A stretch of DNA of 64,000 nt from Minisyncoccota bacterium (GTDB lineage Bacteria; Patescibacteriota; Minisyncoccia; Phycocordibacterales; UBA9973), in the NCBI GenBank assembly GCA_041648595.1, contig JBAZOQ010000001.1, forward strand, positions 14,002 through 78,001, written 5' to 3'. Of this stretch, positions 9,590-62,300 are shown piece by piece. Under the pieces are notes generated by a model, which saw nothing but the letters and a program-made list of their open reading frames with translations, did no database searches and was not told where the DNA came from. Every line of letters begins with the position of its first letter. Within the stretch, counting starts at the first letter, position 1. The translations under genes and the position numbers were made by a program.

Positions 9590-11509
9590 ATGGATTTAAA
9601 ACACATACGAAACTTTTCTATCATCGCACATATTGATCATGGTAAAAGTACTTTGGCGGATAGAATGTTAGAAATTACACATACTATTCCTGAGCGTAAA
9701 ATGCGTGATCAAGTACTTGATTCTATGGATCTTGAACGTGAACGTGGAATTACTATTAAAATGCAACCAGTTAGGATGGTCTATCGACCAAAATTTCCAA
9801 TTTCCAATTTCCAATTTCCAATCAATGATCCAATTTCTAATGAAAATTCTAAATTAAAAATTGAAAATTCAAATTCAGAATACATTCTGAATTTGATTGA
9901 CACCCCAGGGCATATAGACTTTTCTTATGAAGTTTCTCGAGCATTAAAAGCAGTAGAGGGCTCTATTTTATTAGTTGATGCGACACAGGGAGTACAAGCT
10001 CAAACTCTTACTACACTTAATATGGCACGTGAGGGAGCCAAAGAAGGGGGCAAACAAATTATTCCAGTACTTTCAAAGATTGATTCACCACTTGCTCGAG
10101 TAGAAGAAGTAAAAAGGGAGGTTATAGAACTCTTAGGTTGTAATTCTGACGAAATATTGATGGTTTCTGGACGTACGGGTGAAGGAGTAGAAAATCTTTT
10201 AAATGAAATAATAAAACGTATTCCACCACCAGTTGAAAGTTATCCACAAGGTGATAATATTTTACGTGCTCTTGTTTTTGATTTTAAATATTCTAATCAC
10301 AAAGGGGTTATAGTTTTTATTAGATTATTAGATGGAAAAGTAAAAAAGGGTGATAATTTACTTTTTTCAGTTTCAGGTGAAAAATTTTGTGCTCTGGAAG
10401 TTGGTACTTTTTCTCCAGAAGAAACACCAAGAGATTTTCTTTTTGCAGGAGATACGGGTTATATTGTTACAGGCATAAAAAGACCAGGTATTGCTTCTGT
10501 TGGAGATACTATTACAAAAGAAAAAAATCCATTACCTGCATTACCTGGATATATGCAACCAATGCCTGTTGTTTGGGCATCTGTTTTTCCAGAAGATGCT
10601 GATGATTTTTTAGAACTGAAATTATCTTTAGGAAAATTAAAATTATCTGATTCATCTTTTTCATACGAAGAAGAATCAAGTGGTTCACTAGGGCGAGGAT
10701 TTAGATGTGGTTTTCTTGGAATGCTGCATTTAGAGATTATCACAGAAAGATTAAGACGAGAATTTAATTTAGAGCTTGTTATAACTACTCCATCTATTAC
10801 TTATGAAGTATTATTGAGAAACCCTTCGACAGGCTCAGGGCAAGCTGGAAAAAGAGTAAAAATTTATTTTCCTTACTTTTTTCCTGAAGATGGAAATATA
10901 GATACAGTATTTGAACCTTGGGTAAAATTGAAAATAATTACTCCAATCAAATATATAGGCAATATTATGCAAATTCTTTTTGACCATGAAGCTGAAATTG
11001 GTGAGACAGATAATTTTGGCAATAATCGTTCTTCTGTATCTGTTAAAATGCCACTTCGTGAACTTATGCGTAATTTTTTCGATGAATTGAAAAGTGTTTC
11101 ATCTGGATATGGATCTATTTCTTATGAAATAGATGAAATGCGTAAAGCAAATGTTACTAGACTTGATGTGTTAGTCGCTGAAGAAGTGGTTCCTGCATTT
11201 TGTAGAGTTGTTTCAAAAAAAAGGGCAGAAGAAGAAGCAGAAAAAATAGTTGAAAAATTACATGATATTTTACCAAGACAAATGTTTGTTACTAAAATTC
11301 AGGGTAAAGTGTTAGGACGCATAGTATCATCTCGTACATTGCAGGCATTTAGTAAAGATGTGACTCAACATATGTATGGTGGAGACGTTACTCGTAAAAA
11401 TAAACTTCGAGATAAACAAAAGAAAGGAAAAAAGAAAATGAAAGAACGTGGAAAAGTGAATATTCCACATAGTGTATTTTTGAAAATGATGCGTGGAGGA
11501 AATGATTAA
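9590..11509 (+). CDS. lepA: Translation elongation factor 4 (LepA). It carries an in-frame (AATTTCC)n low-complexity insertion and an in-frame GC-rich REP-like insertion.
   Basis: N-terminus MDLKHIRNFSIIAHIDHGKSTLADR, NLIDTPGHIDF, and the LepA-specific C-terminal domain. Length 639 aa. Confidence 0.9.
   Translation: MDLKHIRNFSIIAHIDHGKSTLADRMLEITHTIPERKMRDQVLDSMDLERERGITIKMQPVRMVYRPKFPISNFQFPINDPISNENSKLKIENSNSEYILNLIDTPGHIDFSYEVSRALKAVEGSILLVDATQGVQAQTLTTLNMAREGAKEGGKQIIPVLSKIDSPLARVEEVKREVIELLGCNSDEILMVSGRTGEGVENLLNEIIKRIPPPVESYPQGDNILRALVFDFKYSNHKGVIVFIRLLDGKVKKGDNLLFSVSGEKFCALEVGTFSPEETPRDFLFAGDTGYIVTGIKRPGIASVGDTITKEKNPLPALPGYMQPMPVVWASVFPEDADDFLELKLSLGKLKLSDSSFSYEEESSGSLGRGFRCGFLGMLHLEIITERLRREFNLELVITTPSITYEVLLRNPSTGSGQAGKRVKIYFPYFFPEDGNIDTVFEPWVKLKIITPIKYIGNIMQILFDHEAEIGETDNFGNNRSSVSVKMPLRELMRNFFDELKSVSSGYGSISYEIDEMRKANVTRLDVLVAEEVVPAFCRVVSKKRAEEEAEKIVEKLHDILPRQMFVTKIQGKVLGRIVSSRTLQAFSKDVTQHMYGGDVTRKNKLRDKQKKGKKKMKERGKVNIPHSVFLKMMRGGND
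9792..9819 (+). repeat. Perfect heptanucleotide tandem repeat (AATTTCC)x4 inside the lepA coding sequence, followed by degenerate AAATTC-like repeats to about 9890. It is translated as PISNFQFPINDPISNENSKLKIENSNSE.
   Basis: Seen directly. The segment lies between the G1 and G3 (DTPGH) motifs, where canonical LepA has no such segment. Confidence 0.8.
10821..10848 (+). repeat. GC-rich REP-like element (family B: CCTTCGACAGGCTCAGGGCAAGC) inserted in frame in lepA. It is translated as NPSTGSGQAGK.
   Basis: A roughly 25-nt island of about 65% GC in an about 30% GC gene. The same motif occurs in eno (x2) and valS (x2). Confidence 0.7.
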
Positions 11510-13178: not shown

Positions 13179-14462
13179 ATGAGTGAAAGATTTATAAAAA
13201 ATTTTGATGAATTAGCTACGACTCCAAATCGTAAAATAACATTAGAGATAATGGAATCTGGGTTAAATGCTATTAATACAGCGAAAGTTATTGAATCTTC
13301 TATAAATCTCGTAGGAAAAAATTTATTTATAAAAGAAAAAAGTTTTAATTTATCTCAATATAAAAAAATAAAAGTAATTGGTTTTGGTAAATCTTCTTGT
13401 GACGGTGCACTGGCCTTAGAGAAAATTTTAGGACCTAAAATAAGTGAAGGTGCTGTTATAGGACTTTCGAAGGTTCCATGTAAATATATAGAAACATTTG
13501 CTGGTACACATCCAAAACCATCATTGGTGAATGTAGAAGCTAGTAAAAAAATATATGAAATAGTAAAGGGTTCAACAGAGGATGATCTTATAATTGTTAT
13601 CGTTTCAGGTGGTGGTTCTGCTCTTCTTTGTTATCCAGAAAGTGAATGTACACAAGGTATAAAACTTTATGATCAATTCTTGAAATGTGGGAAAACAATA
13701 TCTGAAATTAATACAGTTAGAAAACATATATCTTCCCTAAAGGGTGGTGGATTAGCTGAATTAGCATATGGAGCAACGGTTATTGGTCTTATTTTTTCAG
13801 ATGTACCAGGAGATGTATTTGAAGATGTCGCTTCTGGTCCAACATATAAAGATAGATCTACCATAAATGATGCTAAACAAATTATATTAAATAATAATTT
13901 AGGAGAGTTTGATTTAATTGAAACTACAAAAGAAGATAAATATTTTGAAAAAGTTTATAATTTTGTTCTTGTTTCAAACAGGACTGCCGTAAAAGCTATG
14001 GAAAAGAAGGCAAAAGAATTTGATTTAAATGTGAATGTTGCTTCAGTTAATCTATATGATGATATAGATAAAGTACTTGAAAAATTATTTGTAGTTCAAA
14101 AAGAAAATTTTATAGTTTTAGCTGCGGGAGAACCTCGTATAATAGTCACAAAAGATGGAGGAAAGGGAGGTAGGAATTTACATATGGCGCTTCGAGCAAT
14201 CAAAAAGAAGATTATTGAAAAAGATTCTGTATTTATATCTTTTGCTTCTGATGGTATGGATAATAGTATTGCCGCAGGAGCAATTGTAGATAAAAATACA
14301 ATAGAAAAAATAGAGAAATTAGGTTTAAATATTGGTGATTATTTAGATCGTTTTGATTCTTATAATATATTTGAAAAGTCAGGTGATTTAATAATGACAG
14401 GTCCTACAGGTGCAAACGTTTCAGATTTGATGATTCTTTTAACAAAAAAAGATGGAAAATAA
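13179..14462 (+). CDS. Glycerate kinase, MOFRL family (glycerate 2-kinase-like).
   Basis: Motifs GFGKSSCDGA, VSGGGSALLCYP, RKHISSLKGGGLAE, AAGEPRIIVTKDGGKGGRNLHMAL and FASDGMDNSIAAGAIVD match the MOFRL/DUF4147 glycerate kinase architecture. Confidence 0.75.
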   Translation: MSERFIKNFDELATTPNRKITLEIMESGLNAINTAKVIESSINLVGKNLFIKEKSFNLSQYKKIKVIGFGKSSCDGALALEKILGPKISEGAVIGLSKVPCKYIETFAGTHPKPSLVNVEASKKIYEIVKGSTEDDLIIVIVSGGGSALLCYPESECTQGIKLYDQFLKCGKTISEINTVRKHISSLKGGGLAELAYGATVIGLIFSDVPGDVFEDVASGPTYKDRSTINDAKQIILNNNLGEFDLIETTKEDKYFEKVYNFVLVSNRTAVKAMEKKAKEFDLNVNVASVNLYDDIDKVLEKLFVVQKENFIVLAAGEPRIIVTKDGGKGGRNLHMALRAIKKKIIEKDSVFISFASDGMDNSIAAGAIVDKNTIEKIEKLGLNIGDYLDRFDSYNIFEKSGDLIMTGPTGANVSDLMILLTKKDGK

Positions 14463-15807
14463 AATTACGAAAATTATTGCAGAAGAAATAAAAGATTCGC
14501 GTGGTAATCCGACTATTAAAGTTACAGTATTTGCTTGCCCGCCTTTGGAGGGTGCAGAATATGTATTTGATAGTTTTTCTGTACCTTCTGGTGCATCTAC
14601 TGGAGCCCATGAAGCACATGAGTTAAGAGACCCCGAACCAGAGCAAGCTCGGTACGGGGCAGGTGATAATGGAAAAGGTGGTATGAAGAAGGCTATTTGG
14701 AATGTAGAAAATATTATTGCACCAGCTTTAATTGGTAAAGATATTTTAAATCAAAAAGAAATTGATAGAATAATGATTGAATTAGATGGAACTGCCAATA
14801 AAGATAATTTAGGAGGTAACTCTATGATAGGTGTAAGTATTGCTTGTGCAAAGACAGCTGCGAAAGTGTCTAATGTGGAAATATTTGAACATTTACGTAC
14901 TTTAATGGAGATAAAACCATCCCTTCGACTAGGCTCAGGGCAAGCTAAGAGGATTCCACATCTTTATATGAATTTGATAAATGGAGGAAAGCATGTCCTT
15001 CGACAAGGCTCAGGGCAAGCAAAGAATGATTTAGTTTTTCAGGAATATCACGTTGTCCCAAATACAGAAGATGCAGTAGAAGCAGTTGAAATTGGAATTA
15101 AAATACAAAATTCTCTTAAAGAAATAATTTTAAAAGAACTAGGAGAAGAGTCTCTTGTATTAGGTGATGAAGGAGGTTTTGCTCCTAAGATAAGTGATAT
15201 TAGAAAACCACTTGAATATTTAAGTAAAGCAATAAAAGAAAATAATTTAGAAGATAAAGTTAGGCTCGCGCTCGATGTAGCTAGTTCTTCTTTTTATAAA
15301 GATGGAAAATATAAAGTTGATGGTAAAGACCCCAAAGGAAAGCAAGCTTCCTACGGGGCAGGAATTTCAAAAGAAGAATTAATGGATATTTATAATTCTT
15401 TAATTACAGAATTTAATTTACTTTCTATTGAAGATCCATTTGATGAAGAAGATTTTGAAAGCTTTAGAAAATTAAAAGAAAATCAAAATAATTTAATAGT
15501 GGTAGGAGATGATTTAACTGTGACAAATAAAGTTCTTTTAAAAGAAGCAATTGAGAAAAATAGTATAAATGCAATGATTATAAAACCAAACCAAATAGGC
15601 ACTTTGACAGAGACACTTGAAACGATGCAATTGGCTCGCTTAAATGGTGTAGAGCTCATAGTCAGCCACAGGAGTGGAGAAACTGAGGATAGTTTTATAG
15701 CTGATTTAGCATATGCTTTTGGATGTTTTGGTCTTAAATCAGGGGCTCCAGAAAAATCTGAAAGAAAAGTAAAATATGATAGGTTAATAAAAATTTCTAA
15801 AATATAG
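14452..15807 (+). CDS. eno: Enolase (phosphopyruvate hydratase) carrying four in-frame GC-rich repeat-element insertions.
   Basis: SGASTGAHEAHELRD, catalytic VGDDLTVTN, IKPNQIGTLTET, SHRSGETED. Inserted segments are PEPEQARYGAG, SLRLGSGQAKR, LRQGSGQAKN and GKQASYGAG. Confidence 0.9.
   Translation: MENKITKIIAEEIKDSRGNPTIKVTVFACPPLEGAEYVFDSFSVPSGASTGAHEAHELRDPEPEQARYGAGDNGKGGMKKAIWNVENIIAPALIGKDILNQKEIDRIMIELDGTANKDNLGGNSMIGVSIACAKTAAKVSNVEIFEHLRTLMEIKPSLRLGSGQAKRIPHLYMNLINGGKHVLRQGSGQAKNDLVFQEYHVVPNTEDAVEAVEIGIKIQNSLKEIILKELGEESLVLGDEGGFAPKISDIRKPLEYLSKAIKENNLEDKVRLALDVASSSFYKDGKYKVDGKDPKGKQASYGAGISKEELMDIYNSLITEFNLLSIEDPFDEEDFESFRKLKENQNNLIVVGDDLTVTNKVLLKEAIEKNSINAMIIKPNQIGTLTETLETMQLARLNGVELIVSHRSGETEDSFIADLAYAFGCFGLKSGAPEKSERKVKYDRLIKISKI
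14631..14663 (+). repeat. GC-rich element family C (CCCCGAACCAGAGCAAGCTCGGTACGGGGCAGG, near-palindromic CCCCG..CGGGG), in frame in eno. Second copy at 15330-15362.
   Basis: Two copies share CCCCRAA..AGCAAGCT..TACGGGGCAGG. Both translate to ..QA(R/S)YGAG. Confidence 0.65.
14925..14949 (+). repeat. GC-rich element family B copy in eno (CCTTCGACTAGGCTCAGGGCAAGC). Another copy at 15000-15024.
   Basis: Same motif as in lepA and valS. Translated as PSLRLGSGQAK and LRQGSGQAK. Confidence 0.7.
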
Positions 15808-19036: not shown

Positions 19037-19059
19037 TTGCGGAAGCAAGACTTCCGCAA
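19037..19059 (+). repeat. REP-1 palindrome TTGCGGAAGCAAGACTTCCGCAA, immediately upstream of tRNA-Gly.
   Basis: Same palindrome family as the three copies around and inside the RAYT gene at 36.3-37.1 kb. Confidence 0.75.
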
Positions 19060-19064
19060 ATATT

Positions 19065-19135
19065 GCGGGATTAGTTTAGTGGCAGAATGAGTCCTTCCCA
19101 AGGATTAGACGGGGTTTCGATTACCCCATCCCGCA
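19065..19135 (+). tRNA. tRNA-Gly (anticodon CCC).
   Basis: Cloverleaf folded by hand. Acceptor GCGGGAT/ATCCCGC, anticodon loop TTCCCAA, T arm GGGGT-TTCGATT-ACCCC, discriminator A. No encoded CCA. Confidence 0.75.
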
Positions 19136-23140: not shown

Positions 23141-23851
23141 TTAATTTTCTACTTCCATTCTTCTTAGTTTTTCAAAAAGTAATATAATAATAATTGTAAC
23201 GACCCAAAGAAAACCTAGTACTCTTAAAAAATAGTTTCCATTATCTTCCATTATAAAAAAATTAAAGGTACTATGCAAGACTATAGCTAATATTATACCC
23301 CCTAAAAGATATAATTTTTTTACAAATTTACCCATAAAAAACGAAAGTCCTAAAGCTATTCCTATGGTACCTGTTGAAACAGCATGGAGTAGCGTAGATC
23401 CTAAAAACCTGAGTTGACCTGTGAGTAGGCCTACCGTAGTTTGGTTAAGTGAGAATGGTTCTATTAGAAACATTGTATTTTCAAGAGCTGCGAATCCTAA
23501 TGCCACAGTAATTAAAAAAATAGGCCAATCTATCGGTTCATCTATACGATTTGTTTTAGAAAGAAGAATTACTACACATAAATATTTTATTAATTCTTCT
23601 ACACTTGCCCAGCCAATAATTTGCCACTCATATGAACTTACAGTATTTTGTATAAATTTTTGGATTGGTATAACAAAAATAACAGAAATCATACCAACAA
23701 AAAACAAAGAAGCAATGAGTCCTTTTGGTTCAGGATTTAAATTGTCTTCTTTTAACCAAAACCAAAGCCAAAGAAGGGCAGGAATAACACCACCTAAAAG
23801 TGCTAAAAATAAAATTTTTGGATCAGTTGTCATTGGGTTTACCCTGAGCAA
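23141..23851 (-). CDS. Polytopic membrane protein, putative PrsW-family intramembrane protease.
   Basis: Multiple TM helices with EELIKY (E-E-x-x-K), FAALENTMF and LLHAVSTG / HSTFNF His motifs resembling PrsW signatures. Confidence 0.45.
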   Translation of the reverse strand: MLRVNPMTTDPKILFLALLGGVIPALLWLWFWLKEDNLNPEPKGLIASLFFVGMISVIFVIPIQKFIQNTVSSYEWQIIGWASVEELIKYLCVVILLSKTNRIDEPIDWPIFLITVALGFAALENTMFLIEPFSLNQTTVGLLTGQLRFLGSTLLHAVSTGTIGIALGLSFFMGKFVKKLYLLGGIILAIVLHSTFNFFIMEDNGNYFLRVLGFLWVVTIIIILLFEKLRRMEVEN

Positions 23852-26027
23852 AGTCGAAGGGCCATTTTTCTACTAATAAAAGTTTTTTGTCTTTTTGTAG
23901 TGGCATCATGGACCATATTTCTTCTGTGATGAATGGTATAAAAGGATGAAGAGCTTTAAGAAGTGTAGTGAGTTGTGAAAGTAATAATACTCGTGCTGAA
24001 ATAGTATTTTTGTTTTCGAGAATTTTTTTCTTTGAACGTTCAATTATTATATCAGCAAAAGTGTGCCAGAAATAATGATAAAGTTTCTCGGCTACAATGT
24101 AGAATTTATATTCGTCCATTTCCTTTGTAATTTCTGTTATTAAATTCTGTAATTCTTTTTCTGATTTTTTATCTTCTTCATCAAGTTCTGTTTCTTTTGT
24201 TGAATCAAAGTCTTTTGTGTTTTCTAATACGAAACGTGCAGCATTCCAGATTTTATTGGTAAATTTGCTGTATGCTTTAACTTTTTGAATATCAAATTTA
24301 CTATCTGCTCCAGGACCTATACCCACAATCATTGACATGCGGAGAGCGTCTGCCCCATATTCATTGATAACTTCTATTGGGTCAATACCATTACCTAGAG
24401 ATTTACTAAATTTTTGTCCTTTCGCATCTCTGAGTATTCCATGAAGATATACCACTTTAAAAGGAATTTCTCCTATTAAATATTGGGACATTAAAATCAT
24501 ACGTGCCACCCAGAAGAATAAAATTTCATAACCAGGATTAATGACACTCGTAGGATGATATGTTTCTAAGTCACTTCCTTTTTTTGGTTTACCATGAGCG
24601 TAGTCGAATGGCCATCCAAGTGTAGAAAAAGTCCAAAGTCCAGAAGAAAACCAAGTATCCAGAGTATCTTCATCTTGAATCCAACCTTCACCCTCTGGTG
24701 TTTCAATTCCACAATATACTTCTTTGTTTTTATACCAAACTGGGATTCTATGTCCATACCAAATTTGTCGTGATATACACCAATCGCGTAGATTTTCTAT
24801 CCAGTTGAAATAAACTTTTTCAAAGTGGTCTGGTAGAATATTTATTTTATTATCTCGTACCGGCTCGAGCATTAATTCTTTAAGTGTTTTATTTCCTCGA
24901 GAGGAGATTTTTTTATTTACATCAATGAACCACTGGAGCATTATTTGTGGTTCTATTATTCCACCAGTTCGTTCAGCCGTCGCAATTCTATTTATATAAT
25001 TTTCATCAATAGAAACAAGTAATCCTTTTGTTTTTAATTTTTCAACAATTTTTTCTCGAGCATCTAAGATTTTCATGCCGGCAAATTCTCCTGCGATGGG
25101 TAAAAGTTTGCTGTATTTATCAATAATTTGTTCTTTGTCTAATTTGTATTTTTCTGCCAATACGAAGTCTTCATGGGAGTGCCAAGGAGTAATGGTCATA
25201 ACCCCAGTGCCGAATTCCATATCGATTATCTCATCCTTGATTATAGTGGCTTCTATTGGGCCATTTATCCATTCTACGGTTAATTTATCGCCATGTTTCC
25301 ATTTACTGTATCTTTCATCTTTTGGATGCATTACGACGTATTTATCACCAAATTTTGTTTCTGGACGAGCGGTACCTATTTCGAAAGGCCCATATTTAAA
25401 AGTATAGAATTTACTCTTTTTTTCTTCATAAACTAACTCATCATCAGATATGACTGTTTGACCCTTTGGATCCCAGTTTACTATTCTATGACCTCTATAA
25501 ATTAAACCGTCGTCGTACATTTTTTTGAAAACAGTGCGAACCGCTAAATTCCTTTTTTCATCAAAAGTAAAAGCTTCTCGTGACCAATCAAGAGATGCAC
25601 CAACTTTACGCAATTGACTTACTATTGTTTTGCGACTATCTGCAACAAATGTGTTTACTCGTTCTAAGAATTTTTCTCGCCCAATATCTTTTTTCTTTAA
25701 TCCTTCTTTTTCTAGAATTTTTGTTATTTTAGAATCTGTTGCAATTGCTGCATGGTCGGTGCCAGGAAGCCAAAGAGTTTTTTCTCCGCGCATACGGTGG
25801 TAACGTATCATTGTATCTTGCATTGAATCTTCAAGCACATGACCTAAATGTAAGACACCAGTGGCATTTGGAGGGGGGAGAACGATAGAAAATTTTGGAG
25901 CATCTTTTTTAATTATGCCTTTCTCAATACATATGTCTGGATTAAAAAAACCGCTCTCTTCCCAGAGTTTATAAATTTTATCTTCTATTTCTTTTGGGTC
26001 GTAGGGTTTTAGCAATCTTTCATCCAT
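23823..26027 (-). CDS. valS: Valyl-tRNA synthetase (class I, HIGH = PPPNATGVLHLGH, KMSKS = KFSKSLGN). Two in-frame GC-rich element insertions (WPFDFAQGKP at the extreme C-terminus and WPFDYAHGKP internally).
   Basis: N-terminus YDPKEIEDKIYKLWEESGFF and catalytic motifs. Length 734 aa (C-terminal coiled-coil domain absent). Confidence 0.85.
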   Translation of the reverse strand: MDERLLKPYDPKEIEDKIYKLWEESGFFNPDICIEKGIIKKDAPKFSIVLPPPNATGVLHLGHVLEDSMQDTMIRYHRMRGEKTLWLPGTDHAAIATDSKITKILEKEGLKKKDIGREKFLERVNTFVADSRKTIVSQLRKVGASLDWSREAFTFDEKRNLAVRTVFKKMYDDGLIYRGHRIVNWDPKGQTVISDDELVYEEKKSKFYTFKYGPFEIGTARPETKFGDKYVVMHPKDERYSKWKHGDKLTVEWINGPIEATIIKDEIIDMEFGTGVMTITPWHSHEDFVLAEKYKLDKEQIIDKYSKLLPIAGEFAGMKILDAREKIVEKLKTKGLLVSIDENYINRIATAERTGGIIEPQIMLQWFIDVNKKISSRGNKTLKELMLEPVRDNKINILPDHFEKVYFNWIENLRDWCISRQIWYGHRIPVWYKNKEVYCGIETPEGEGWIQDEDTLDTWFSSGLWTFSTLGWPFDYAHGKPKKGSDLETYHPTSVINPGYEILFFWVARMILMSQYLIGEIPFKVVYLHGILRDAKGQKFSKSLGNGIDPIEVINEYGADALRMSMIVGIGPGADSKFDIQKVKAYSKFTNKIWNAARFVLENTKDFDSTKETELDEEDKKSEKELQNLITEITKEMDEYKFYIVAEKLYHYFWHTFADIIIERSKKKILENKNTISARVLLLSQLTTLLKALHPFIPFITEEIWSMMPLQKDKKLLLVEKWPFDFAQGKPNDN
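23836..23864 (-). repeat. GC-rich element family B variant (TGGCCCTTCGACTTTGCTCAGGGTAAACC on the minus strand) at the valS 3' end. Second copy at 24587-24615.
   Basis: Both translate to WPFD(F/Y)A(Q/H)GKP. Same CCTTCGAC..GCTCAGGG core as the lepA and eno copies, but read in a different frame. Confidence 0.65.
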
Positions 26028-26067: not shown

Positions 26068-26176
26068 AAAAAAGACAAAACATCTTTTAAAAAGCATTGC
26101 GCAGGCTGACGAGCCGAGCATAGCAAATTTTCAGCAGAAAATTATGTGCGGTTTTTAAAAGATGTTTTGTCTTTTT
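26068..26176. mobile_element. Hairpin / MITE-like element. Perfect 24-25-bp inverted repeat AAAAGACAAAACATCTTTTAAAAAG ... CTTTTTAAAAGATGTTTTGTCTTTT flanking a 58-nt core containing the GC-rich motif CGCAGGCTGACGAGCCGAG. Located in the valS-tsaD intergenic region.
   Basis: Read directly. The core motif recurs inside tsaD at 26683-26702 and in degenerate form upstream of tRNA-Ser (about 28990-29015). Confidence 0.65.
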
Positions 26177-26179
26177 TTG

Positions 26180-27382
26180 TTAGAGGCTAAGGTTTCCTTT
26201 GGCCTTTATGCTCGAGATTTTTGGTACTTTTTTCTTATTTTTTATAAATTGTAGATATCCAGCTACACCTATCATTATTGAATTATCTCCTGTTAATTTT
26301 TTTTCTGGGAAAAGTAATATAGTATTTTTTTCTACAATTTTTTTCATTTGTCTTTGTAAATGTTCATTACAAGATACACCACCAGCTACTATGATTGTTT
26401 TTGCTTTATATTTTTCTTTTGCTTTAATTGTTTTATAAATAAGAGTTTCTACTACAGCATTTTCAAATTCTAGTGCAATAGCTTGTTTTATTTTTTCATT
26501 TTGCCCGCCTGCCTCGTTATGCGAAGCATTTCGGGCAGGTAATATATTAGGATTTTCTTTTTTAAGGTCACGTATTAAATAAAGTACTGCAGTTTTTAAT
26601 CCTGAAAATGAAAAATCAAAATTTTTACTGTAGAGCATAGGGCGGGGAAGAGCGAAGGAAAAACAATCTTTGTGGGGTGTCTCGCAGGCTGACGAGCCGA
26701 GAGGCAGCGCTCCGCGAGCACGCGGAGACAGCGACCCCAGAAAGATTGGTTTTTCTGTAGCTCTTTTTTTTTCAGCTAATTTTGAAATTTCTGGTCCTCC
26801 TGGATAAGGCAGATCCATCATTCTAGCTACTTTGTCATATGCTTCTCCTGCAGCATCATCTAATGTTTGACCAATGATTTTGTATTGTAGCCAATTTTTT
26901 GAGAGTACAAGCTCTGTGTGCCCACCAGAAACGAGAAGAGATAAAATAGGGAATTCTATTTTAGGAATTGTAAAACTACCCTTGCTTTTAGCAAATACAG
27001 ATACTATATGTCCTTCCATGTGATTAACTGGTATAAGTGGTACATCCCATTTTTCTGCAAGTTCTTTTGCAAAAACTATTCCACTCCAAAGTGAAGGTTC
27101 TAGCCCTGGTCCATAAGTGACTGCTATTAGATCAACTGGTTTTTCTTTTTTAGCTAATTTGGATTTTTTAAGAGCTTTTTCTAATAGTATTGGTAAATTT
27201 TTTATATGTTCACGTTTTGCGAGCATAGGGAATACTCCACCATAAGGAGTATGAATTGCTATTTGTGAATTTGAAAAATTAGATAAAATATTAAATGAAG
27301 CAAAACCATTTTTATTGAGATTTGCATCCATTATTGTTATGGCTGTATCGTCACAGCTAGTTTCTATACTTAATATTTTCAT
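26180..27382 (-). CDS. tsaD: tRNA N6-adenosine threonylcarbamoyltransferase TsaD (Kae1/Gcp family) with a roughly 35-aa in-frame GC-rich insertion.
   Basis: MKILSIETSCDDTAITI, NHMEGHI, SGGHTELV, VAGGVSCN. The inserted segment is GSLSPRARGALPLGSSACETPHKDCFSFALPRP. Confidence 0.85.
   Translation of the reverse strand: MKILSIETSCDDTAITIMDANLNKNGFASFNILSNFSNSQIAIHTPYGGVFPMLAKREHIKNLPILLEKALKKSKLAKKEKPVDLIAVTYGPGLEPSLWSGIVFAKELAEKWDVPLIPVNHMEGHIVSVFAKSKGSFTIPKIEFPILSLLVSGGHTELVLSKNWLQYKIIGQTLDDAAGEAYDKVARMMDLPYPGGPEISKLAEKKRATEKPIFLGSLSPRARGALPLGSSACETPHKDCFSFALPRPMLYSKNFDFSFSGLKTAVLYLIRDLKKENPNILPARNASHNEAGGQNEKIKQAIALEFENAVVETLIYKTIKAKEKYKAKTIIVAGGVSCNEHLQRQMKKIVEKNTILLFPEKKLTGDNSIMIGVAGYLQFIKNKKKVPKISSIKAKGNLSL
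26638..26750 (-). repeat. GC-rich palindromic element of about 110 bp (family D core CGCAGGCTGACGAGCCGAG flanked by imperfect inverted repeats CAATCTTTGTGGGGTGTC / GACAGCGACCCCAGAAAGATTG) inserted in frame in tsaD.
   Basis: GC content far above the surrounding coding sequence. Shares its core with the intergenic element at 26097-26116. Confidence 0.65.
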
Positions 27383-36325: not shown

Positions 36326-36347
36326 TTGCGGAAGCAAGGCTTCCGCA
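36326..36347 (+). repeat. REP-1 palindrome TTGCGGAAGCAAGGCTTCCGCA, immediately upstream of the RAYT gene.
   Basis: Perfect 9-bp arms GCGGAAGC/GCTTCCGC around CAAGG. Confidence 0.75.
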
Positions 36348-36361
36348 GTACTATAGTTAGT

Positions 36362-37063
36362 ATGGCGTATAGAAAAGCATCTTTTGTAGAAGGAGAATTT
36401 TATCATATTTATAATAGAGGAAATAGTAAACAAAAAATATTTTTAGATAATCATGATTATGATCGTTTTATAAAATTATTATATCTTTGTAATTCAGAAT
36501 ATAGTATTGATTTTCGTGAAGATATAGTAAGACAGGGAATTAATGCTTGGGATTTTGATCGTGGTGAATCTATAGTTTCAATAGGTGCATGGGTATTAAT
36601 GCCAAATCATTTTCATTTATATTTAAATATAAATCCGCGGAAGCAAGGCTTCCGCAAAGTTCGTATTAATGAAATTACAGAATTTATGCACAAACTTTTG
36701 ACATCTTATTCGAAGTATTTTAATACAAAATATAAACGTACAGGAGGATTATTTGAAGGTAAATTTAAATCAGTTCATATAGAGGATGATAATCAAGCAA
36801 AATATCTTTTTTCTTATATTCATTTGAATCCAGTCAAACTTATAGATAGTAAATGGAAAGAAAATGGAATAAAAAATAAAAAACAAACAAAAGATTTTTT
36901 GAATAAATATATATGGTCAAGTTATTTAGATTATAAAGGAATTACTCGTTCCCCAAATAAAATTTTAAATAAAAAGGCATTTCCAGAATACTTTCGTAAT
37001 ATGAAAGATTTTGATTTTGAAATAGGGGAGTGGCTTAATTTTTCGGATTCTGACTTAAATTAA
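36362..37063 (+). CDS. IS200/IS605-family HUH Y1 transposase, REP-associated tyrosine transposase (RAYT)-like. It contains an in-frame REP-1 copy (PRKQGFRK).
   Basis: N-terminal FVEGEFYHIYNRGN, HUH motif MPNHFHLYL, catalytic Tyr region KYLFSYIHLNPVK. Flanked on both sides by REP-1 palindromes. ATG 36362 is preferred over the track's TTG start at 36326, which lies inside the REP. Confidence 0.75.
   Translation: MAYRKASFVEGEFYHIYNRGNSKQKIFLDNHDYDRFIKLLYLCNSEYSIDFREDIVRQGINAWDFDRGESIVSIGAWVLMPNHFHLYLNINPRKQGFRKVRINEITEFMHKLLTSYSKYFNTKYKRTGGLFEGKFKSVHIEDDNQAKYLFSYIHLNPVKLIDSKWKENGIKNKKQTKDFLNKYIWSSYLDYKGITRSPNKILNKKAFPEYFRNMKDFDFEIGEWLNFSDSDLN
36635..36657 (+). repeat. REP-1 palindrome CCGCGGAAGCAAGGCTTCCGCAA inserted in frame within the RAYT gene.
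   Basis: Translated as NPRKQGFRKV directly after the HUH motif. Confidence 0.7.
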
Positions 37064-37096: not shown

Positions 37097-37119
37097 TTGC
37101 GGAAGCCAGGCTTCCGCAA
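37097..37119 (+). repeat. REP-1 palindrome TTGCGGAAGCCAGGCTTCCGCAA, immediately downstream of the RAYT gene.
   Basis: Read directly. Confidence 0.75.
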
Positions 37120-54956: not shown

Positions 54957-56762
54957 GTGAAAGAAGAAATACTAAAATTTTTTAATGGGGAAGTAGAAGA
55001 TAGCGAAGAAACACTTTTAAAATATTCGCGTGATGCGAGTATTTTTGAATTACGACCAAAGCTTGTTCTTTTCCCTTTGGACTCAAAAGATGTTCAGAAT
55101 TTAGTGAAATGGGTAAGTGAAAATAAAGATAAATATGCCGATCCTGAAAAAAATAAAGATTATAAAAATCTTTCCATTACTTGCAGATGCGCAGGAACAG
55201 ATATGTCAGGTGGTGCTATAGGTGAATCTTTGATTTTGGATTTCACTCGGCATATGAATAAGTTGATACGACCACCTCGCCCTTTGGGCACTCCTCCTTC
55301 AAAAGGAGGAGAAGATTTTTCTCCCCTCCTTGGTGAGGAGGGGGCTGGGGGTGGTGATTATTCCATCACTGTGCAGCCCGGTATGTTTTATCGAGATTTT
55401 GAAAAAATAACTTTAGAAAAAGGACTTATTTTGCCTTGTTACACTGCATCAAAGAGTTTGAATGCTATGGGTGGAATGTTTGGTAATAATTCGGCTGGAG
55501 AGCGAACTCTTAAATATGGGAAAACAGAAGATTATATTTTAGAAACAAAGATAGTTTTTTCTGATGGTAATGAATATATTATAAAACCATTAACTCAAAA
55601 TGAATTAACTAAAAAAATAATGCAGTCAAATTTTGAGAGTGAAATTTATAAAAATATTTATAATTTAATAAATGAAAATAAAGAAGAAATAAAAAATGCC
55701 AAACCAGCGGTCAGTAAAAATTCTGCAGGATATTATATTTGGAATGTAATTGGAGATTTTTTTGATTTAAACAAACTTTTAGTTGGTTCTCAAGGCACAT
55801 TGGGTATAGCTACCGAAATTACTTTTAAACTTGTTAAAAATCCTAAACATTCTAAACTTGTAGTTATTTTTGTTAATGGATTAGAACCATTGGGTCGTCT
55901 TGTGGATGAAATTTTACAATTTAAACCAGAAACACTTGAGACATATGATGATAAAACTATAAAATTAGCAGTTAGATTTTTTCCAGATTTTCTTAAAAAT
56001 AAAGGTCTTCTTGGTATGATAAAATTTATGTGGAGTTTTTTACCTGAATTGAAAATGATGTTCAATAGTCTTTTTGGGGGTGGTTTCCCAAAATTAATTA
56101 TTCTTGCAGAGTTTGCTGGTGAAGATGAATCTATGATAGACAGGCAATGTATTTCTTTAAAAGAAAAGATTTCCGCCAAAGGCGGACCAGCCTCAGGCTG
56201 GAAAAATATAAATGTTCATATTACAAAGTCAGAGATAGAAGCAAATAAATATTGGGATATTAGAAGAGAAAGTTTTTCTTTACTACGTAAACATGTCAAA
56301 GGTCTTCATACTGCTCCATTTATAGATGATATTATAGTTCGTCCAGAATTTTTGCCAAAATTTATTCCTGAGCTTAATCAAATTTTTTCAAAATATGATT
56401 TGAATTATACAATAGCAGGACATATAGGAGATGGTAATCTTCACGTCATTCCTCTTATGGATTTTAAACATCCTGATACACCTAAAATAATAATAGAACT
56501 TGGAGAGAAAGTGTATGATCTTATTATAAAATATCATGGTTCTATTACAGCAGAACACAATGATGGTATAGTTCGTACTTTATATTTAGAAAAAATGTAC
56601 GGGAAAAAGATGGTTGCAATTTTTGGAGAAATAAAAAAAATATTTGATTTGAAAAATATTTTTAATCCAGGTAAAAAAACATTTTCAGAAGATGGTGGTG
56701 GAACAAAAGAATATATGATTTCACATATTGCACTGGAACATAGCGTAATACATAAAGTTTAA
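54957..56762 (+). CDS. FAD-linked oxidase (PCMH-type FAD-binding domain plus FAD-oxidase C-terminal domain; glycolate oxidase GlcD / D-lactate dehydrogenase-like) with a roughly 30-aa GC-rich insertion.
   Basis: FAD-binding N-terminus and C-terminal GHIGDGNLHV. The insertion is RPPRPLGTPPSKGGEDFSPLLGEEGAGGGD. Confidence 0.7.
   Translation: MKEEILKFFNGEVEDSEETLLKYSRDASIFELRPKLVLFPLDSKDVQNLVKWVSENKDKYADPEKNKDYKNLSITCRCAGTDMSGGAIGESLILDFTRHMNKLIRPPRPLGTPPSKGGEDFSPLLGEEGAGGGDYSITVQPGMFYRDFEKITLEKGLILPCYTASKSLNAMGGMFGNNSAGERTLKYGKTEDYILETKIVFSDGNEYIIKPLTQNELTKKIMQSNFESEIYKNIYNLINENKEEIKNAKPAVSKNSAGYYIWNVIGDFFDLNKLLVGSQGTLGIATEITFKLVKNPKHSKLVVIFVNGLEPLGRLVDEILQFKPETLETYDDKTIKLAVRFFPDFLKNKGLLGMIKFMWSFLPELKMMFNSLFGGGFPKLIILAEFAGEDESMIDRQCISLKEKISAKGGPASGWKNINVHITKSEIEANKYWDIRRESFSLLRKHVKGLHTAPFIDDIIVRPEFLPKFIPELNQIFSKYDLNYTIAGHIGDGNLHVIPLMDFKHPDTPKIIIELGEKVYDLIIKYHGSITAEHNDGIVRTLYLEKMYGKKMVAIFGEIKKIFDLKNIFNPGKKTFSEDGGGTKEYMISHIALEHSVIHKV
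55271..55368 (+). repeat. GC-rich insertion of about 100 bp in the FAD oxidase gene, containing nested palindromes CTCCTCCTT-caa-AAGGAGGAG and CCCCTCC-ttggtga-GGAGGGG.
   Basis: Read directly. More than 60% GC against about 30% in the gene. Confidence 0.65.
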
Positions 56763-62209: not shown

Positions 62210-62212
62210 AAT

Positions 62213-62300
62213 TCCCCTCTTGAGGGGTGCCCCTCGGGCGGGGTGGATGAATATTTCCACCTCCCCCTAAAGGGTACTCCTCAAGAGGAGAATAAACCCA
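62213..62300 (+). promoter_or_regulatory. GC-rich structured intergenic element between atpE and atpF, with palindromes CCCCTCTTGAGGGG and CTCCTCAAGAGGAG and a GGTGGA..TCCACC stem.
   Basis: Read directly. More than 55% GC in a roughly 90-nt stretch. Confidence 0.45.

Follow-up and report, generated by a model that had tools for sequence, protein, structure and literature searches.

A 24-25-nucleotide dispersed repeat, present across bacterial phyla, as in-frame insertions in the lepA, eno and valS genes of a Patescibacteria genome

In the 64,000-nucleotide (nt) stretch of Minisyncoccota DNA analysed here (contig JBAZOQ010000001.1; hereafter the window, about 30% GC and part of an AT-rich, metagenome-assembled Patescibacteria genome, a Candidatus Paceibacterota related to Nomurabacteria), the genes lepA, eno and valS carry the same short GC-rich motif, here called family B, which is read as different peptides in different genes. 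Does the motif represent a feature of the proteins, or a DNA element that has entered the genes? Comparison with related genomes shows that family B is inserted DNA, homologous across phyla, which is kept in genes only when the reading frame is preserved; the first-pass annotation, which had proposed an inserted element constrained only to keep the host frame, is borne out by sites in close relatives that lack precisely 24 nt. We consider it highly probable that lepA owes its 24 extra bases to a mobile module moved in trans, a dispersed repeat that is very short, GC-rich and non-palindromic.

Five in-frame copies of family B in three genes

The consensus of the family-B unit is CC-CTTCGAC-(2-3 nt)-GCTCAGGG-YAARC, a GC-rich, non-palindromic block of 24 or 25 nt. 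The window was searched for CTTCGAC and GCTCAGGG separated by one to four bases, and for CCTTCGAC-N-GCTCAGGG, in which the left half is the longer octamer; a single mismatch was tolerated in each half. Five copies and no further match were found in the 64 kb, compared with 0.02 in shuffled sequence, which excludes chance. The motif lies where it had been annotated. Two more CCTTCGAC octamers (6071 and 58622) are without the right half and appear to be chance occurrences. The host genes and the five copies are as follows (aa, amino acids).

9590..11509, plus strand: lepA (EF4), 639 aa compared with about 600 aa in relatives
14452..15807, plus strand: eno (enolase), 451 aa compared with 405 aa in the closest relatives
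23823..26027, minus strand: valS (ValRS), 734 aa, without the C-terminal coiled-coil domain
10822..10845, plus strand: family-B copy in lepA, CCCTTCGACAGGCTCAGGGCAAGC, spacer AG, peptide (N)PSTGSGQA
14921..14945, plus strand: family-B copy at eno site 1, CCCTTCGACTAGGCTCAGGGCAAGC, peptide LRLGSGQA, net gain of 24 nt
14996..15020, plus strand: family-B copy at eno site 2, TCCTTCGACAAGGCTCAGGGCAAGC, peptide VLRQGSGQ, net gain of 24 nt (14995-15018)
23837..23861, minus strand: family-B copy at the valS 3' end, CCCTTCGACTTTGCTCAGGGTAAAC, peptide PFDFAQGKP, then NDN and the stop codon
24587..24611, minus strand: degenerate family-B copy inside valS, CCATTCGACTACGCTCATGGTAAAC, peptide PFDYAHGK(P), net gain of 24 nt

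The peptides originally read from these sites (PSTGSGQA in lepA; LRLGSGQA and VLRQGSGQ in eno; PFDFAQGKP and PFDYAHGKP in valS) were recovered, and the spacer between the halves, annotated as 3-4 nt, proved to be 2 nt (AG) in lepA and 3 nt in the other four copies. The copy at the valS 3' end follows TGG-CCC and also represents a net gain of 24 nt; the interior copy stands directly after the conserved LGWP, and its degenerate halves are CCATTCGAC and GCTCATGG. Three frames are used for the left half (PST in lepA, LR. in eno and PFD in valS) and two for the right (AQGK or AHGK in valS, GSGQA in the other two genes), indicating a DNA element rather than a protein motif. The annotated difference in reading frame therefore stands; the accompanying claim of different orientations does not, since all five copies lie on the sense strand of their host gene and their genomic strand differs only because valS is on the minus strand. 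The lepA copy and the C-terminal valS copy are identical at 20 of 22 core bases and have one of eight peptide residues in common.

These data bear directly on the explanation that the segments are selected protein features, functional loops that share codons by chance. Sub-clades of LepA, Eno and ValRS do retain the insertions in partly decayed form, but the explanation is refuted by the three reading frames, which yield unrelated peptides; further copies of the unit lie in DNA that codes for no protein, one of them in an RNase P RNA gene, and neither the closest relatives nor other phyla have the segments. We give it almost no credence, in agreement with the earlier statement that no conserved protein motif is involved.

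Each copy in the window adds 24 nt, or eight amino acids, and keeps the reading frame. In alignments to solved homologues, the lepA insert corresponds to an 8-aa gap in Thermus thermophilus EF4, the two eno inserts to 8-aa gaps in the Methanocaldococcus and human enolases, and the interior valS insert to an 8-aa gap in T. thermophilus ValRS; peptide conservation in other phyla, which had been named as evidence that would count against insertion, is thus not seen in these structures. Empty and filled sites were then compared in specific related contigs fetched individually, and differed by exactly 24 nt at the nucleotide level. One of these contigs, from Ca. Nomurabacteria CG_4_10_14_0_2_um_filter_30_12 (L259), is fully syntenic with the window (87% nucleotide identity in eno and 91% in PPDK). 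The state of each site was as follows.

lepA site: empty in L125 and L259; filled in L258 by a copy that has the spacer AA and matches the window copy at 22 of 24 bases
eno site 1: empty in L259, L258, L125 and L206, filled in L207 and L208
eno site 2: empty in L259, L258 and L125, with decayed or variant copies in L206 (a variant with a two-base spacer), L207 and L208
valS interior site: empty in L122 (ValRS 91% identical) and L123
valS C-terminal site: filled in L122, which has the most similar ValRS, and empty in the more distant L123 (WP|NV-stop)

The lepA insertion is a clean 24 nt inside an AAT codon, without duplication, and at the other four junctions only 1-3 bases (CC, CCC or G) are ambiguous. 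The window enolase has five lineage-specific insertions amounting to 46 residues, two of which are family B; by parsimony, with L258 as the outgroup, both family-B copies and the three other short GC-rich insertions would have been gained in the lineage of the window. A metagenome scan seeded with the enolase alignment returned only distant enolases (63% identity or less) among the matches listed, and these were of no use for comparing filled with empty sites. L122 (GCA_043723545.1) has a variant unit of its own in valS, CGTTCGACTTCGCTCACGACAG, at about 2650-2680 (the same region as L125 16640-16655, minus strand), read as TSLTTGK, from which it follows that the family has been active in more than one lineage; at this TSLTTGK site, other ValRS homologues bear a 16-residue, Cys-containing insert.

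Nothing was found in favour of an assembly or sequencing artefact, which we regard as the least credible explanation of the segments: five of the five copies preserve the frame, identical proteins are recorded from independent contigs and sources, related copies stand at the same sites in other assemblies, and the unit is present in isolate genomes.

Occupancy was surveyed in 120 homologues each of Eno, ValRS and LepA. Among the 120 closest enolases (66-80% identical, base length 403-405 residues), the LRLGSGQA site was filled in 10 and the VLRQGSGQ site in 17, the latter often decayed to VHQQSSGQ, and a third site six residues upstream held RLGSGQAQ in 6; nucleotide alignment revealed that the decayed eno copies depart from the consensus mostly towards A/T. 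The LepA site was filled in about 30 homologues, the interior ValRS site in the query and one other, and the C-terminal ValRS tail was present in about one-third. Identical sites were thus patchily occupied in all three proteins, and the pattern was patchy on a neighbour-joining tree too; gains and losses are not countable on so weak a single-gene tree, most genes of the relatives being at almost equal distances. As to the ValRS terminus itself (23823-23861, minus strand), the protein ends a few codons past the element, without the C-terminal coiled-coil domain of Thermus, and the PrsW-protease gene downstream begins in overlap with the valS stop codon (ATGACAACTGA); the ValRS of relatives ends at WP(S), or at WPNV without the element.

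The positions of the inserts in the proteins were examined in structural models. In the AlphaFold (AF2) model of the enolase (mean predicted local distance difference test score, pLDDT, of 84), both family-B inserts are in coil, that of site 1 lying between H144-151 and E170-177; residues 184-190 have a pLDDT below 50. The insert at site 2 immediately follows the histidine of GGKH, which we take to be the catalytic histidine of the enolase active-site loop. In the LepA model, which is of low confidence (mean pLDDT 56), the insert is placed between two predicted strands, in agreement with the alignment to Thermus EF4.

Distribution across phyla, viral contigs and genomic contexts

The element is not a peculiarity of this genome. 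Scanning one genome per species (596 Gb) for CTTCGAC-N2-3-GCTCAGGGYAARC revealed at least 120 loci, compared with about 9 chance matches expected from arithmetic with equal base frequencies. The matches fall in over a dozen phyla, among the groups represented being Patescibacteria, Cyanobacteria, Acidobacteriota, Chloroflexota, Alpha-, Beta- and Gammaproteobacteria, Bacteroidota, Planctomycetota and Omnitrophota. Some are from isolates in culture (Nodularia, Anabaena, Baaleninema, Flagellimonas and Sphingomonas). Immediately 5' of the pattern, two bases that were not part of the search are C in 118 of 129 copies (position -2) and in 126 of 129 (position -1), and all flanking positions beyond this CC look random; a near-invariant CC within random flanks indicates that the copies form a single family of sharp-ended units, each 24-25 nt long. 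Common spacers among these copies are AA, AG, TTC and several other T.C triplets. Furthermore, 49 loci were found in viral contigs, with the CC flank on 49 of 52 copies.

The copies occur in intergenic DNA, singly, within short tandem repeats and beside tRNA or tmRNA genes. The unit forms 24-nt tandem arrays (L115 and L078) and, in sphingomonads, inverted pairs resembling REPINs. A nested L[LR]R arrangement, with a complete unit between the CTTCGAC and the AAGCTCAGGG of another, is present in L008 and L075; such self-insertion was found in other genomes and not in the window. A minority of copies is embedded in tandem or host repeats (L003, L013, L016, L043, L077 and L105), which applies to none of the window copies, and flanking direct repeats of at least 7 nt accompany 12.6% of copies compared with 3.9% of controls. 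Insertion into hairpin loops or tandem repeats was considered as a general rule and rejected: flanking stems and direct repeats are about threefold enriched but accompany just 7-13% or so of copies.

Within other Patescibacteria, the unit is found in long open reading frames (ORFs) in all three sense frames (L028, L045, L051 and L055); the ORF of L055, from Saccharibacteria, is LeuRS-like. Unambiguous long ORFs hold 35 sense and 8 antisense copies (P = 0.0045 relative to the fraction of 0.6 expected from open frames); one of the eight antisense copies is in an RNase P gene misread as an ORF.

Several loci have architectures of their own. The RNase P RNA gene of another Paceibacterota (L076 6840-7270, minus strand) holds a family-B unit and, about 60 nt downstream, its inverted partner CCCGAGCGAAGTCGAGGG; these insertions presumably fall in the P15-P17 region, and the two could form an extended helix. 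In a Crocinitomicaceae locus (L040 2830-3290), the unit has the 3' end of a tmRNA gene on one side and, on the other, 17 nt that partly duplicate this end, an arrangement that looks like the remnant of an integration site. The Pseudomonadota metagenome-assembled genome P01_F01_bin.151 (L008, L056 and L075) carries a dense sister sub-family, CCCTTCGAC-AA-GCTCAGGGACCGC, in head-to-tail arrays every 1-2 kb, with GCAAGC-type units nested inside the sister sub-family clusters.

A conserved primary sequence without structure that is over-represented in many genomes could also be a functional DNA word, such as an uptake, recombination or protein-binding site accumulated by selection or biased conversion. 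The DNA uptake sequences (USS/DUS) of Pasteurellaceae and Neisseria are likewise short DNA words that lie in coding regions in several frames; they arise by substitution, without change of length, and are lineage-specific. The family-B copies are instead 24-nt insertions or deletions (five of five), every tested copy being a length difference relative to its empty site, and nested copies and tandem arrays exist. We know of no single DNA-binding function common to these phyla and phages, and we consider the DNA word a very improbable explanation.

Structure of the unit and possible routes of movement

The folding energy of family B, -0.9 to -1.5 kcal/mol, is no improvement on that of shuffled sequence (z from +0.1 to +0.9), and a REP-like hairpin was accordingly rejected. 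It has no terminal inverted repeats, no clear target-site duplication was seen at the junctions of the five window copies, and direct reading of both ends of the consensus on either strand revealed no GTAG or CGTC tags. The motif had no match in Rfam at gathering thresholds. Elements consisting of a left half, cargo and a right half were sought in 1.9 Mb of loci, and no consistent pairs were found; a resemblance to tRNA (T-loop or D-arm) or to a 23S rRNA segment, judged by eye, is weak.

The window does encode a RAYT-like transposase and contains a palindromic repeat, as follows.

36362-37063, plus strand: RAYT-like Y1/HUH transposase gene (NF047646, E = 2e-12), with HUH (HFHL) and YIHLNP motifs
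36328-36346, 36637-36655, 37099-37117 and 19039-19057: copies of the RAYT-linked palindrome

Movement of family B as a REP-type element by such an enzyme, through single-strand peel-and-paste, has some appeal, because Y1 transposition is strand-specific, leaves no target duplication and allows precise excision, which would fit the patchy sites, and because inverted pairs are seen in sphingomonads. The RAYT gene is, however, flanked on both sides by a different repeat, the perfect palindrome GCGGAAGC(A/C)AGGCTTCCGC, which folds at -10.6 kcal/mol (z = -5.96), in contrast to the shuffle-like folding of family B. RAYT homologues were found in just 2 of 259 loci, without enrichment near family-B copies, and that of L025 is accompanied by a separate palindrome. 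Family B is near-identical across phyla; REPs, as far as is known, are usually specific to a lineage. The association with RAYT was rejected, and we judge this route improbable. The gene and its flanking palindromes constitute a REPtron; the RAYT coding sequence contains one palindrome copy in frame (PRKQGFRK), at a point where some eight residues are lacking in the homologue from L025, and the fourth copy is just upstream of a tRNA (19065-19135).

A somewhat stronger contender, which we still think rather unlikely, is an RNA route, in which a short transcript of the unit, or its cDNA, is inserted into DNA or mRNA and then fixed by recombination, as has reportedly been proposed for cyanobacterial small dispersed repeats. 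The ends of the unit are sharp and there is no target duplication, the genic copies, including that in the RNase P RNA gene, are mostly sense, and the size class and nested self-insertion match those repeats as they are said to be. Against this route, the window ORFs scanned include no reverse transcriptase, poly-A and priming signatures are lacking, and eight intragenic copies are antisense.

We therefore return to the reading we prefer, in which family B would be a non-autonomous module moved in trans. The missing target duplication, the sharp ends, the sense excess of about 4:1 and the patchy occupancy of identical sites point to strand-specific insertion on a single strand, which may be DNA, as on the lagging-strand template, or RNA, through an RNA or cDNA intermediate; excision is possibly precise. 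The ribosome would read through the insert in whichever frame it had landed (PST.SGQA, LR.GSGQA or PFD.AQGK), and selection would retain those copies that amount to a net multiple of three, contain no stop codon and lie in tolerant loops.

Several observations weigh against this reading. No mobilising enzyme was found, and the movement of family B is deduced rather than directly observed. The relatives with empty sites are 9-25% divergent at the nucleotide level, so that gain rests on parsimony and is undated. The lepA pattern (window and L258 filled, L259 empty) calls for recombination, a precise loss or two independent insertions at one site. No conserved target sequence was seen around the five window sites or the 129 scan copies, so that the absence of a consensus offers no explanation for repeated insertion at identical sites. 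Selection on the encoded peptides, rather than the mechanism, could be behind the sense bias, and the inserts are only presumed to be translated, judging from the preserved frame and the absence of stop codons.

Neither the family-B sequence nor its peptides were found in the literature searched. The closest kinds are the small dispersed repeats (SDRs) of Nostocaceae and the palindromic elements of Rickettsia. The former, SDR1-8 of Nostoc and Anabaena, which Elhai and colleagues are said to have described in 2008, are reportedly 21-27 nt long, sharp-ended, nested and often embedded in tandem heptamer repeats, and neither a transposase nor an evident target duplication is reported for them; that work is not known to have dealt mainly with in-frame insertion into essential genes. 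Family B resembles them as a sharp-ended block of 24-25 nt that is nested in L008 and L075; in some Nostocales loci (L016, L067 and L086), copies lie within short tandem repeats of this kind. One report describes SDRs as confined to Nostocaceae (PMC5861425). Family B differs in that viral contigs and over a dozen phyla carry it; it may represent a published SDR family, the comparison with SDR1-8 having been made by description.

The Rickettsia palindromic elements (RPEs), reportedly described by Ogata and colleagues in 2000, are said to be palindromic, about 100-150 bp long and restricted to one genus. They share with family B the in-frame insertion of a repeat into conserved protein genes and RNA genes of a small AT-rich genome, where it adds a surface segment and leaves the host gene intact; family B, at 24-25 nt, is non-palindromic and found across phyla, and the RPE is five times longer. 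Fungal mitochondrial GC clusters, double-hairpin and byp elements form hairpins, and byp is skipped by the ribosome, so that the frame need not hold; like family B, these are short GC-rich mobile elements in the coding regions of an AT-rich genome, but they are organellar. Miniature inverted-repeat transposable elements differ from family B, which has no terminal inverted repeats and no clear target-site duplication.

Among bacterial repeats, intragenic REPs have been described, some of them in tRNA synthetase genes, together with the GTAG/CGTC REP families (Di Nocera et al. 2013, PMC3733652), and REP and REPIN elements have been linked with RAYT transposases (Bertels and Rainey 2011, PMC3116915). 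These too are short, GC-rich, interspersed and in part intragenic, and family B forms inverted doublets in sphingomonads; it differs in having neither hairpin nor GTAG/CGTC tags and in not flanking the RAYT gene of this genome. Two candidates were rejected as identities for family B: the GTAG/CGTC REP families, which have a different structure (PMC3733652), and the multicopy sequences of Geobacter metallireducens, which, judged by their text description, have other motifs (PMC2700814). Family B is unusual in being near-identical across phyla, in being unstructured and in having entered essential genes as well as RNase P RNA.

Other insertions in the window and significance of family B

Further short insertions were found in eno, lepA and tsaD, along with GC-rich islands elsewhere in the AT-rich sequence.

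14632-14664 and 15331-15363, plus strand: two 33-nt insertions of another family, CCCNAANNANAGCAAGCTNNNTACGGGGCAGG, in eno, peptides PEPEQARYGAG and PKGKQASYGAG
14533-14553, plus strand: 21-nt GC-rich insertion in eno, peptide CPPLEGA, at a beta-hairpin turn, absent from the closest relatives
9785-9862, plus strand: 78-nt insertion in lepA with four tandem TTTCCAA heptamers (9794-9821), read as FPISNFQFPIN
10031-10054, plus strand: 12-nt tandem duplication in lepA, EGAK-EGGK
26672-26740, minus strand: palindromic GC-rich insertion of about 70 nt in tsaD, FLGSLSPRARGALPLGSSACETPH
26504-26539, minus strand: 36-nt insertion in tsaD, peptide PARNASHNEAGG
55268-55360 and 56171-56204 (both in the FAD-oxidase gene, 54957-56762) and 62212-62253: GC-rich islands

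The two 33-nt eno insertions form hairpins, the inner stems of which differ by compensatory changes (ACC/GGT compared with AGGAA/TTCCT); both are absent from L259, L258 and L125, and the first site is filled in 30 of the 120 enolases. At the site of the 21-nt insertion, other enolases have a 10-residue insert (CPSEALAKEG and similar). The position of the 78-nt lepA insertion is a hot spot, with at least 10 unrelated short inserts in LepA homologues (for example, PALKGTPPQQGGEDSSPPKLGGVP and GPEPIGSETLRVER). The ARNA...AGG type of peptide recurs in enolase and ValRS homologues, and the 19-mer CGCAGGCTGACGAGCCGAG is common to the tsaD insertion and the intergenic valS-tsaD spacer (26100-26118, plus strand). 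The GC-rich islands include CCYTC/GGRGG-type words (CCCCTCCTTGGTGAGGAGGGGG) and TTCCGCCAAAGGCGGACCAGCCTCAGGCTGG; the FAD-linked oxidase (601 aa) seems long for its Pfam domains, which suggests several inserts.

As a tentative and, in our view, doubtful extension of these results, family B may represent an unrecognised class of the smallest mobile DNA: 24-25 nt long, non-palindromic, nearly unchanged across many phyla and phages, inserted strand-specifically and without target duplication through a widely conserved host or phage function rather than a lineage-specific transposase, and remodelling loops of essential proteins and RNase P RNA in Patescibacteria. If so, one 24-nt sequence would have been inserted into essential genes and a structural RNA in very distant bacteria, which is hard to explain by known transposition, and the idea of a smallest mobile element would be widened from one cyanobacterial family to bacteria generally. 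The unit would also provide a concrete sequence with which the responsible enzyme could be found by co-occurrence across genomes. Furthermore, it would account for a large share of the odd short insertions and spurious repeat-derived peptides (such as SGQA, FD.AQGK and LRQAQGK) in metagenome-predicted proteins, and would bear on the alignment, phylogeny and structure prediction of Patescibacteria proteins.

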